Below are positions 24,001-27,000 of a DNA stretch of 41,956 nt, piece after piece. The stretch comes from a virus. Its lineage: Duplodnaviria > Heunggongvirae > Uroviricota > Caudoviricetes. A program made the position numbers. How positions within the stretch are numbered: position 1 is the first letter of the stretch; each line of letters opens with the position of its first letter. The DNA is taken from positions 1 to 41,956 of the IMG/VR virus record IMGVR_UViG_2718218133_000008. One strand, 5' to 3'.

Positions 24001-27000
24001 CAGAAGTGATCACCACCCTGTCTACAGAGCCAGATGTGAAGGATGATGAGTAAAATTATCGCTATCATCGAAGGCATTGCGTCCTGATATATTCCTGAAG
24101 CGTTCTCAGTGCTGTCTGGTCTCTGATGATTCCGTCCCGGATACCGAGAACGTTTCGTCCAGCAACTGGAGAGAGTTCGACGGTGGCATCATTGCCCATG
24201 CCGGAGGCGCTGGAGGTTTCGGCTGAGGATGGCACAGAGCATTTTCCTTTGACGAGCACCCGACCACCATTATCAAGCTTGCGCCGAAGAGCATCATTTT
24301 CAGCTTTCGCATCAGCCAACTCCTTCGTGTATTTAGCATCGAGTACATCAGCAGCACGCTGGCGTTGCTGCATGTCAGTAATGGTGGCGGTCGCCTGCTT
24401 CAGCTCACTGACTTTTTTATCACGCTGTTCTTTGTAGGCGATGGCGTTATCACGGTAATGATTGACCGCCCACGACAGGCAGACGATGATGCAGATAACC
24501 AGAGCATAAATAATCGCGGCGACTCTGCTCACTGATCTATCCCCCAACAGGCTAATGCGCTTTCCTGGTCACGACGAATAACCTGTCCATAGCAGTTATT
24601 TGAACGTATGCGGCAATCGCGCCCACCATCTTTTATCCACCAGCGAATCGCCTCGCATGCACTCTTACGATCACCGGCATTCAGCCGCTTATAAAACGTC
24701 GACGGGAAACACTTACCGGGGCCAATGTTATAGGGACAAAATGACGCTATACCCGCTTTCTGTGGTTCGGTCAGTGGTACTTTAATATTGCGCTCCACCC
24801 ATGCCAGCGCCTTATCACGTTCAATAGCGTTAACCTGGTCGCATTTTTCCTTCGACAGCTTCATTCCCGGTATGACGGGCTTACCATCCACCATTGTGGC
24901 ACCACGACAGATGGTCCATATACCGGAACCATCGCGGTATGCCGTAGTGTGGTTACCCTCTTTTTCATCCAGAAACTGGTCAAGTATTTGAGGAGCAGAC
25001 GAGCCTGCAGCAATCAGCGCCAGAACGGCAGCCGACAGGCCGTATCTGATTTTTGCGTTCATGGATATTTATCAGGATTTATCGGTTTCTGCCCACGGAC
25101 AGGTTTATCTGTTCCGGTCAGTGACTTAAGGTTGTGATTCCGGAGGAGTCTTCAGAGAACCAGTAATTCTTCCTGGTAGCTTTCCTTTGTAGGTTATCCA
25201 CACATTCTGCGCATCTAAAATTACGGGGCGCTTTTCCGGCGACTGCTCATCCCCTTCACATAACCCGGCAGCAACATCCAGGAAGACCTGTCTGATGCTC
25301 CTTCTGGCTGCTGCCTCATAAAACTCCAGCGCGGCACCTTCAACACGGTCCAGCGAGATGTCCAGGTCAAAAATTTCACCGTCAAAGCGTTTTTTGTCCC
25401 GTAACGCTACAGTTACCGTAACTTTATTCTCAAAATTGCGGATCCCTTTCACAATCAGTTCATAGTTTTGAGTCATTGAATTACTCTCCCCGTGCAGCCT
25501 TACGCTTGTCTTCTTTAATCTTGAAATAAAGGTTTGTCAGATACGTCAGCAAGCCAAATACCAGACTACCCAGCACACCTATTGCCGCCCACTGTGAGGG
25601 CGTGACTTTATCGAGCAACTGTAAAAACCAGTACCCGGCACTACCTGCTGAGGTGCCATAGGCGACACCCGTTGTTAACTTATCCATGGATTTCATAACC
25701 CCACCTCGCAGATGCGGGTGCTGTGTAATGGAAATAAAAAGGCCACCTGACGTGGCCACCAGATTATTTCCCCACCAGCTCGTTTATCTCTTTCACTGTC
25801 TGGTTAAACCGCTCTGACTCAAGCTCAACACCTAAGGCCCGACGCCCCAGCGCCATTGCTGCTTTTATTGTGGAACCGGAGCCCATAAAAAAATCAGCAA
25901 CCAGATCACCTGGTCGACTACTGGCATTGATTATTTGCCTGAGCATATCCGCCGGTTTCTCACACGGATGTTTCCCCGGGTAGAACTGAACGGGTTTATG
26001 CATCCAGACATCGGTATAAGGCACGGAGACTGATACGGAGAAATAGCGCCGGAGAGATTTAAACTCATCCAGCAATTCAGAATATTTGCGATTCAGTGAA
26101 TCATAAGATGCCACCAGCTGGTGGTGTGGTTGTTCCAGTTGTTGTTCCTGAAACTTCTCTGCCGCTATACGGGAAAACAGTGCCTGTAACTTCCGATAGT
26201 CAGCCTCATTCGGCAACTGCCACTGACAGGCACCAAACCAGTGGGAAACCATATTTTTCTTACCTGTGGCTTCGGCAATTTGTTTTGCCGTTATACCCAG
26301 TTCGGCACGAGCATCCCTGAAATACGATATCAGCGGTGCCATTATGTGCTGTTTGAGTTCCCTTTCTTTTGCTGCATAGCCGTCACTTTTGCCGCGATAT
26401 GGCCCCTGGTAATGTTCAGCAAACAGAACTCGCTCTGTGGCAGGAAAATATGCACGCAGACTTTCTTTATTACACCCATTCCAACGTCCGGACGGCTTCG
26501 CCCAGATGATATGGTTAAGCACGTTGAAACGTTCACGCATCATGATCTCAATATCAGATGCCAGGCGATGCCCACAGAACAGGTAAAGGCTTCCGGCAGG
26601 TTTTAACACCCGCCAGAACTGGGCCAGACAGTGGTCCAGCCACTTAAGGTAATCTTCGTCCCCTTTCCACTGATTGTCCCAACCGTTGGGTTTCACCTTG
26701 AAGTACGGCGGATCGGTAACAATCAGGTCAATGGAATCATCAGGCAGGGACTGAATAAAATGCAGGCAATCAGCGTTGATTAAATCAACACTGTTTATTT
26801 TTACAGTATTTTTCATGGATCAGTAAGCGTAACTCTGGTAGGCTCACTCTGCTTTTGCGCTAAAGCAGTGGGCCGTGGTTCGCTTGTGACCAGTAAGCAT
26901 GAGCGAATGGCTGGCAGGTGCTACCAACACCCACCAGCCGCCCATTTTCACAGCAGGAAACCGCCATTACTGGCAGCGTCTGAATTTATTCCCGTACCCA

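Follow-up and report, generated by a model that had tools for sequence, protein, structure and literature searches.

In this work we have analysed the gene at positions 25764-26816 (minus strand) of IMG/VR virus record IMGVR_UViG_2718218133_000008, a stretch of 41,956 nucleotides (Caudoviricetes) that we call the window and that is a lambdoid prophage segment with tail, head, terminase, lysis, Q, nin, replication and immunity genes. Its product is a member of the M.EcoGII family of adenine methyltransferases as judged from its sequence; no partner endonuclease was found for it within the window, and the gene lies in the late region, in front of a lysis cassette, a linkage that is conserved in distant relatives. 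We consider that the gene would code for a late, Q-switched, non-specific adenine methyltransferase that protects progeny DNA from restriction, a reading to which we assign a probability of about 0.75.

Family membership and orphan status

The open reading frame (ORF), as given by the ORF listing of the window, starts with ATG, codes for 350 amino acids and occupies the position reported in the initial annotation of this DNA. It matches the Pfam family N6_N4_Mtase (PF01555) over residues 29-341 (E 2.5e-42, 145.8 bits against a cut-off of 26.7), and this match runs nearly end to end, as positions 1-220 of the 221 in the profile are covered. The PHROG DNA-methyltransferase families (phrog_67, E 1.6e-102) and the PADLOC type II methyltransferase model (E 2e-151) are also matched. 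The DPPY motif is located in the N-terminal part and is followed by a central target recognition domain (TRD) and by the FxGxG motif, here FMGSG, in the C-terminal part; this is the order of the beta class, the class to which the enzyme had been initially assigned.

The comparison with M.EcoGII, whose sequence was machine-read from the PDF of Supplementary Table S1 of PMC11551740 with a few reading errors, revealed 280 identical residues out of 349 (~80%, an approximate value for that reason) in a full-length and collinear alignment with 2 gap positions. The identity is higher in the N-terminal catalytic part (89%) than in the TRD (76%) or the C-terminal part (75%). Furthermore, the window protein is bracketed by two reconstructed variants of the family, the ancestor Anc291 (89% identical) and Anc284/SUPREM (70%), both of which are active in DNA and RNA methylation with no discernible RNA sequence motif (PMC11551740). 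M.EcoGII itself methylates adenine in any sequence context (PMC5778455), and from this homology together with the bracketing variants we infer a non-specific adenine methylation by the window protein. M.EcoGII has been described, on the basis of AlphaFold2 models and size-exclusion chromatography, as a homodimer with a Rossmann catalytic domain, a TRD that forms a four-helix bundle with a helix-turn-helix, and a charged linker (PMC11551740); with 80% identity, the window protein would be expected to have a similar architecture and to form a homodimer too. A sequence search of the PDB found no structure of an M.EcoGII-type enzyme but only relatives of the catalytic core, as M.RsrI, M.MboIIA and CcrM match just two catalytic-core segments and leave residues 110-280 uncovered.

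Two enzymes of defined specificity were rejected as identities of the window protein: the YhdJ/M.EcoKII (ATGCAT) equivalog NF008572 gave 109.9 bits against a cut-off of 292, in two terminal stretches only, and the CcrM equivalog NF050803 gave 68.1 bits against 830. The initial annotation had left the specificity open and had missed the identity of ~80% to M.EcoGII. Because this identity extends over the full length, the comparison with REBASE that was recommended there would return 'non-specific', and the failure of a new methylated motif to appear, which was put forward as a refutation, is unsuitable for that purpose since a non-specific enzyme would give no discrete motif anyway. The gene was thus correctly spotted but it is ordinary. 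M.EcoGII-type enzymes have been characterised, are sold as a reagent and serve widely in chromatin footprinting. Published work already covers the gene and its family, the fact that it is an orphan carried by prophages, and the hypothesis of protection from restriction, and the exact protein is in the databases.

The absence of a partner endonuclease, also claimed from the first reading, was sustained within the scope of our searches. Ten window ORFs were run through PADLOC and none matched a restriction endonuclease; restriction-modification models were matched by the two methyltransferases only, and these were methyltransferase models. A Pfam scan of the larger ORFs found tail, Lom, cII-like, DUF551 and exonuclease domains and no restriction enzyme, and no restriction endonuclease is listed in the RefSeq annotation of the closest related prophages. 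In a type II restriction-modification system the cognate endonuclease is adjacent, whereas here the neighbours are a predicted winged-helix ORF and the holin gene. The DUF968/HNHc_6 gene located next to Q (28866-29861) recurs upstream of Q in related prophages and was rejected as a restriction partner. The second orphan methyltransferase of the window, which had been described as Dam-like, belongs to the phage Dam family according to both PF05869 (Dam; E 9.8e-46, 156 bits with a cut-off of 28.1) and TIGR01712 (phage N-6-adenine-methyltransferase; 255.6 bits with a cut-off of 97.05), and is 100% identical to the 'dam' product of phage cdtI.

Probable late transcription and linkage to lysis genes

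The gene is located between Q and the holin gene, as initially stated, inside what appears to be a Q-dependent late transcript; two small ORFs that lie between Q and the methyltransferase (27394-27819 and 26967-27194) were absent from that first reading. Directly after the stop codon of Q there is a putative promoter composed of TTGCAT (28068-28063), 17 nt, TAAGAT (28045-28040), 6 nt and AACGATGGG (28033-28025). When this region was aligned with the pR' promoter of lambda, the -10 hexamer and the identical 9-mer AACGATGGG coincided, with equal spacing. In lambda, the sigma-dependent pause element where Q loads is carried by this 9-mer. The promoter is followed by a tR'-like intrinsic terminator (27993-27969; fold of -25.2 kcal/mol, z = -3.25), of which a second copy is found after the lipoprotein-like ORF. 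The GC content of this ORF is 0.376 and that of the 650-bp segment between both terminators is 0.357, compared to 0.506 for the whole window, and the segment resembles a moron whose insertion at tR' duplicated the terminator. At 27316 there is a mosaic joint, where the homology to phages cdtI and PhiR40_1 stops precisely. A third hairpin (25757-25736; -18.1 kcal/mol, z = -3.5) separates the methyltransferase from the holin gene, and in the annotation of phage Ayreon there are terminators at the equivalents of all three hairpin sites.

The genes for Q, the lipoprotein-like protein, the small ORF, the methyltransferase, the holin, DUF1327, the lysozyme and Rz are all on the same strand and, at the level of sequence, the promoter, the pause element, the terminator and the co-oriented genes have the layout of a lambdoid Q-dependent late operon. 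A scan for consensus promoters gave 5 sites, with 8.0 expected by chance, and no site directly upstream of the pair formed by the small ORF and the methyltransferase; scans of the whole window for tRNAs and for Rfam families found no tRNA and no match, respectively. Most simply, transcription of the small ORF and the methyltransferase, together with the lysis genes, would be carried out only by a Q-modified, terminator-resistant polymerase. This agrees with the published silence of close homologues in lysogens: for M.EcoMV of strain EC958 both the transcript, assayed by reverse transcription PCR, and the methylation signature were absent (PMC4659465), the O111 homologues gave no methylation signal in lysogens (PMC6602927), and M.EcoGI and M.EcoGII are silent in the lysogen, M.EcoGII being deleterious when it is constitutively expressed (PMC5778455).

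The position in front of the lysis genes recurs in other phages. The homologue of Serratia phage OS31 (64% identity) is found in the order Q, methyltransferase, holin, lysozyme and Rz, with other sequence after Q, and those of the N15-like phage YDC107_1 (56%), of Vibrio phage MAR (48%; annotated as similar to VHML ORF17) and of a Salmonella prophage with a lambda-type Q and a GH19 endolysin (82%) are directly before lysis genes; in Stx2a_WGPS2, a relative that is 93% identical to M.EcoGII lies downstream of Q and upstream of tRNAs and stx2. For a systematic survey, 319 viral-contig loci were collected with four queries; the family-alignment query gave only 96-100% identical loci, and three further scans of viral contigs used distant homologues as queries. 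Those loci with a full-length homologue and at least 2 kb downstream (268) formed 53 clusters at 85% identity, which span 49-100% identity to the window protein. Same-strand ORFs starting within 1.8 kb downstream were then clustered, and the representatives of these clusters were annotated with PHROGs. A recognised endolysin was present in 34 of the 53 methyltransferase clusters and any recognised lysis gene in 35, compared to a chance level for a random gene in a 40-kb phage of ~4%; this level is a rough estimate, and the clusters lack phylogenetic independence. At least five PHROG families are represented among the endolysins (7, 181, 315, 465 and 894), which indicates that the linkage between methyltransferase and lysis genes survives the replacement of the lysis cassette.

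Two further observations were made downstream of the homologues. In 8 clusters (represented by loci L140, L187, L151, L234, L197, L125, L136 and L193) the methyltransferase is followed, from ~+20 to +1400 nt, by a triad of proteins, phrog_27866 (~103 aa), phrog_3108 (~166 aa) and phrog_15362 (~156 aa), for which no Pfam match was found and which were left out of the lysis-gene count. Their sizes and spacing resemble those of a holin, an endolysin and a spanin, and the triad may be an unrecognised lysis cassette. In locus L282, which represents a cluster of 6 viral contigs, the ORF directly downstream of the EcoGII-like methyltransferase (4731-5486, plus strand) has a Tad2-like (Thoeris anti-defence 2) domain and a DUF7823, and in this way two candidate counter-defence genes adjoin.

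Upstream of the methyltransferase, the ORF at 26967-27194 (75 aa from the first ATG, 67 aa in the RefSeq call) has no Pfam match and its product is, according to a structural model, a stand-alone winged-helix protein. A tblastn search found homologues in 149 of 327 loci; in loci L001-L004, as well as in the nine cluster representatives that had a tblastn match, the small ORF directly precedes the methyltransferase. With an iterative profile search among same-strand ORFs ending at most 900 nt upstream, it was detected in 22 of the 53 clusters, the N15-like group included, although these small proteins are only 16-60% identical to that of the window. It precedes the methyltransferase by 20-460 nt, and the phages concerned include lambdoid, Salmonella Gifsy-like and N15-like ones; the Salmonella homologue P0102 is 52% identical and occupies the same position, and further winged-helix ORFs were located in L328 (3501-3692), L006 (2506-2733) and L002 (4153-4350). 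Weak matches to TrmB, DprA_WH and MarR_2 were obtained for 15-22 of 28 homologues. While an AlphaFold2 model from the single sequence was unusable (pLDDT, the predicted local distance difference test score, of 61), that from the alignment of 28 sequences reached a pLDDT of 84, with helices at residues 16-25, 34-41 and 45-57 followed by a beta hairpin (H-H-H-beta-beta). In Foldseek this model resembled the winged-helix domains of Z-alpha, IclR, Rrf2 and TrmBL2 (TM scores of 0.7-0.78, all with E >0.001), and a profile search against PDB sequences gave marginal matches only, to the winged-helix domains of EutK and PefI (E ~0.02).

It is conceivable, if rather doubtful, that the methyltransferase is one half of a conserved two-gene late cassette with the winged-helix protein, usually placed before whatever lysis cassette is present. 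M.EcoGII is active when cloned alone (PMC5778455) and, therefore, the winged-helix neighbour would not be needed for catalysis; more speculatively, it could control the timing of a toxic enzyme or hold it back, guide it to the phage DNA, or recognise the methyl mark. If this were true, selection would have favoured the coupling to the lysis genes, which would restrict non-specific methylation to the final minutes of infection. Our literature searches found no description of a winged-helix partner or of the lysis linkage. In the chromosome of Erwinia sp. P7711 a winged-helix homologue precedes a truncated methyltransferase remnant, an uncalled fragment (L331, 3852-4508, plus strand) that is 59% identical and covers residues 1-219; it lies just downstream of the winged-helix homologue and of a truncated Q, and represents a decayed copy of the same cassette.

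Table 1. Coordinates of the methyltransferase gene, its motifs and the surrounding late-region features in the window
Feature	Position	Strand	Evidence or remark
Second orphan methyltransferase, phage Dam family, early/nin region	31401..32054	-	PF05869, TIGR01712
Antiterminator Q	28100..28882	-	PF03589 (E 4.9e-53), phrog_127
pR'-like late promoter, putative	28025..28068	-	Sequence read and alignment to lambda pR'
tR'-like intrinsic terminator	27969..27993	-	AACCCGCCGCTGAGCGGG and T run, ~65 nt past the inferred transcript start
Lipoprotein-like ORF, 141 aa, phrog_4748, low GC	27394..27819	-	Between the two terminator copies
Second terminator copy	27293..27316	-	96% identical to the first copy (repeat family D1)
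Small winged-helix protein, predicted, phrog_331	26967..27194	-	150 nt upstream of the methyltransferase
M.EcoGII-family beta-class N6-adenine DNA methyltransferase, predicted	25764..26816	-	350 aa, TAA stop at 25764-25766
Catalytic motif IV DPPY, residues 35-38	26703..26714	-	Direct translation; invariant in an alignment of 7 homologues
TRD equivalent, residues 160-237	26106..26339	-	76% identity to M.EcoGII, gap-free; domain limits from PMC11551740
Cys197 codon	26226..26228	-	Ser in the other 6 aligned homologues and in WP_000799656.1
S-adenosylmethionine (SAM)-binding motif I FMGSG (FxGxG), residues 310-314	25875..25889	-	Direct translation; F310, M311, G312, S313 and G314 all invariant
GC-rich hairpin and T5	25736..25757	-	Right after the methyltransferase stop, before the holin start
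Lysis cassette	24065..25696	-	PF04971, PF07041, PF00959, PF03245; RefSeq of near-identical prophages
P21-type holin	25481-25759 (as ORF)	-	PF04971; true start probably ATG 25696, MKSMDK dual start
DUF1327/YdfR	25126-25476	-	PF07041; between holin and lysozyme
Lysozyme	24529-25062	-	PF00959
Rz	24065-24547	-	PF03245

Proposed role and alternatives

According to our proposal, the enzyme would use SAM to methylate adenine at N6, with practically no dependence on the sequence. The gene would be silent in the lysogen, as it has no convincing promoter of its own and is located ~1.2 kb past the pR'-like promoter and behind two intrinsic terminators. After induction, Q would load on RNA polymerase at the pause element and make it resistant to termination, so that the winged-helix gene, the methyltransferase and the lysis genes would be co-transcribed late. 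The enzyme, presumably a homodimer by analogy with M.EcoGII, could then methylate adenines across the replicating or concatemeric phage DNA before packaging, and on entering a new host the progeny genomes would from the start resist many restriction systems of types I, II and III that are sensitive to adenine methylation. Damage to host DNA or RNA would be immaterial because the cell is about to lyse, and the position beside the lysis genes would confine a toxic, indiscriminate activity to a dying cell. Protection of progeny DNA from restriction, one of the two roles initially suggested for the gene, is the accepted hypothesis for the M.EcoGII family, and it is by analogy that it would apply here; the other one, epigenetic effects on the host, is unlikely because close homologues are silent in lysogens and constitutive M.EcoGII is deleterious.

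Several points weigh against this proposal. The call of the late promoter rests on its likeness to lambda pR' although the Q of the window matches PF03589, and the consensus promoter scan missed it. The nearest characterised natural enzyme differs by ~20%, and by 24% within the TRD, values that are approximate given the reading errors in the reference copy of M.EcoGII, and residue 197 is Cys in the window protein but an invariant Ser in six other homologues, down to 48% identity. In addition, heavy adenine methylation could expose the phage to methyladenine-dependent (type IV) nucleases, and our literature searches found no study of virion DNA hypermethylation or of better plating on restricting hosts, nor any experimental test of the role of EcoGII-type enzymes in their own phages.

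Among the alternatives, the one that survives best, although we regard it as unlikely, is a mainly regulatory role in which late methylation tunes packaging, late transcription or lysis timing, or in which leaky expression reprogrammes host genes. The tight and conserved linkage to lysis cassettes and the conserved winged-helix neighbour would be compatible with it, and a packaging role is known for the Dam methyltransferase of P1. The enzyme of Vibrio phage MAR, whose annotation notes a similarity to VHML ORF17, is 48% identical to the window protein and could point in the same direction; a role as life-cycle regulator has reportedly been proposed for the VHML adenine methyltransferase, as the title of the 2012 work by Bochow and co-workers has it. 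Prophage methyltransferases with effects on the host do exist, for example M.EcoGIII and pamA of S. aureus (PMC12435837). However, a non-specific enzyme carries little positional information, and the homologues mentioned above showed no transcript or no methylation signal in lysogens (PMC4659465, PMC6602927, PMC5778455). Moreover, many lambdoid phages lack the gene, lambda itself has none between Q and S, and it should be dispensable for the lytic cycle because 933W-like Stx2a phages retain a mere 34-aa remnant.

A sequence-specific orphan methyltransferase with a defined motif, its specificity arising from the 24% divergence of the TRD with respect to M.EcoGII, is less probable still. Most PF01555 enzymes are site-specific, the TRD is just 76% identical to that of M.EcoGII, there is partial similarity to the YhdJ/PRK11524 and CcrM models, and the NCBI product name is 'site-specific DNA-methyltransferase'. 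However, this name is a generic label and not a tested property, the YhdJ (109.9 vs 292) and CcrM (68.1 vs 830) scores are far under their cut-offs, and the TRD aligns to M.EcoGII without gaps; in addition, the variants that bracket the window protein (89% and 70%) are active on both DNA and RNA with no RNA motif (PMC11551740), and the O111 homologues, ~93% similar to M.EcoGI/GII, are listed as 'nonspecific' (PMC6602927). The NCBI name is probably wrong for the whole cluster of ~4000 members, as the characterised member of the family is non-specific.

We give very little weight to the possibility that S197C is a lesion that inactivates or weakens the window copy, which would then be a passenger in a prophage undergoing decay. 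It is true that the Ser present in six other homologues is replaced and that truncated remnants are found elsewhere (34 aa in 933W-like phages and residues 1-219 in Erwinia), but the ORF is intact and full length with all the catalytic motifs, the change from Ser to Cys is conservative, and the prophage around the gene retains intact Q, lysis, terminase and tail genes. Furthermore, the protein with Cys197 occurs on 514 contigs, which speaks for an allele in circulation and against a private lesion; being so common, the allele is probably tolerated. Finally, the idea that RNA or single-stranded DNA is the relevant substrate (late mRNAs, host rRNA or tRNA, or replication intermediates) is the least likely, since, although M.EcoGII acts in vitro on RNA, DNA:RNA hybrids and single-stranded DNA (PMC5778455) and the RNA activity varies 12-fold within the family, M.EcoGII is initially ~90 times faster on DNA than on RNA (rates of 11.12 vs 0.12, Supplementary Table S3, PMC11551740), residue 179 of the window protein is Gln as in M.EcoGII and not the RNA-boosting Glu of SUPREM, which suggests DNA as the preferred substrate, and no phage phenotype has been linked to RNA methylation.

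Distribution and closest known systems

Prophages of E. coli ST131 (JJ1886 and others) carry the 2-kb segment around the gene at 99.5% identity, and in 886 of 5426 complete E. coli genomes it was found at a coverage of at least 80%; it also occurs in Stx1a and Stx2c phages and, as near-identical DNA, in the cultured phages mEp460, Ayreon and cdtI. The exact window protein is on 514 public contigs, and its 90% cluster has 4060 members, mostly labelled 'site-specific DNA-methyltransferase' by NCBI. WP_000799656.1, the protein of E. coli JJ1886 and phage Ayreon, shares 349 of the 350 residues, the sole difference being S197C; mEp460 has the Ser197 allele as well, and both it and Ayreon plate on K-12. 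In many 933W-like Stx2a phages only a 34-aa C-terminal remnant is left (residues 315-348, 82-85% identity; for example NC_008464.1 59743-59841 and HG792105.1 23964-24062), and apparently the EcoGII-like gene has been lost repeatedly from the Q-stx region. Clinical E. coli lineages such as ST131 commonly have prophages with both a Dam-type and a non-specific adenine methyltransferase, and these prophages could influence the ease with which phages or transduced DNA cross restriction barriers. The position at the front of the lysis genes and the conserved winged-helix neighbour offer concrete hypotheses for the role of these enzymes in the phage.

The closest systems are the prophages that encode WP_000799656.1, in which Q, the lipoprotein-like ORF, the winged-helix ORF, the methyltransferase and the holin gene are shared with DNA identities of 99.2-99.5%, whereas the replication and immunity regions are unlike those of the window. 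Among the characterised enzymes, M.EcoGII (GenBank EGT69837.1) and M.EcoGI, from E. coli O104:H4 C227-11, are non-specific adenine DNA/RNA methyltransferases (Murray et al. 2018, PMC5778455). The window protein has in common with M.EcoGII the beta-class order, the length (350 vs 349 aa), a collinear sequence that includes the TRD, the prophage location and the lack of an endonuclease partner, and it differs in the ~20% divergence (24% in the TRD) and in Cys197 instead of Ser; tRNAs and stx2 lie downstream of the M.EcoGII relative, while the window gene has the holin gene directly downstream. M.EcoMV of E. coli ST131 EC958 (Forde et al. 2015, PMC4659465), 99% identical to M.EcoGI, is likewise an orphan methyltransferase of this family, encoded by a prophage in a host of the same kind; it differs in subclade, its own being that of M.EcoGI/GII, to which the subclade of the window protein is ~80% identical.

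More distant is the methyltransferase of vB_VpaM_MAR, a full-length homologue (48% identity) encoded immediately upstream of the endolysin region, in this case in a Vibrio myovirus without Q-type late control; for the enzyme of VHML the proposed role, as worded in a title, is life-cycle or virulence-related. YhdJ/M.EcoKII and CcrM share the PF01555 catalytic core, with the best local matches at motif IV and motif I, but the central TRD has no similarity and the equivalog scores are far below the cut-offs. Mom of phage Mu is an unrelated protein with an elaborate Dam/Com-dependent control, and its chemistry is other than simple methylation. Nevertheless, Mom would be the functional analogue of the enzyme proposed here, as it provides a late and broad adenine modification that is silent in the lysogen and toxic if mis-expressed, and that protects against many restriction systems (PMC12707154).

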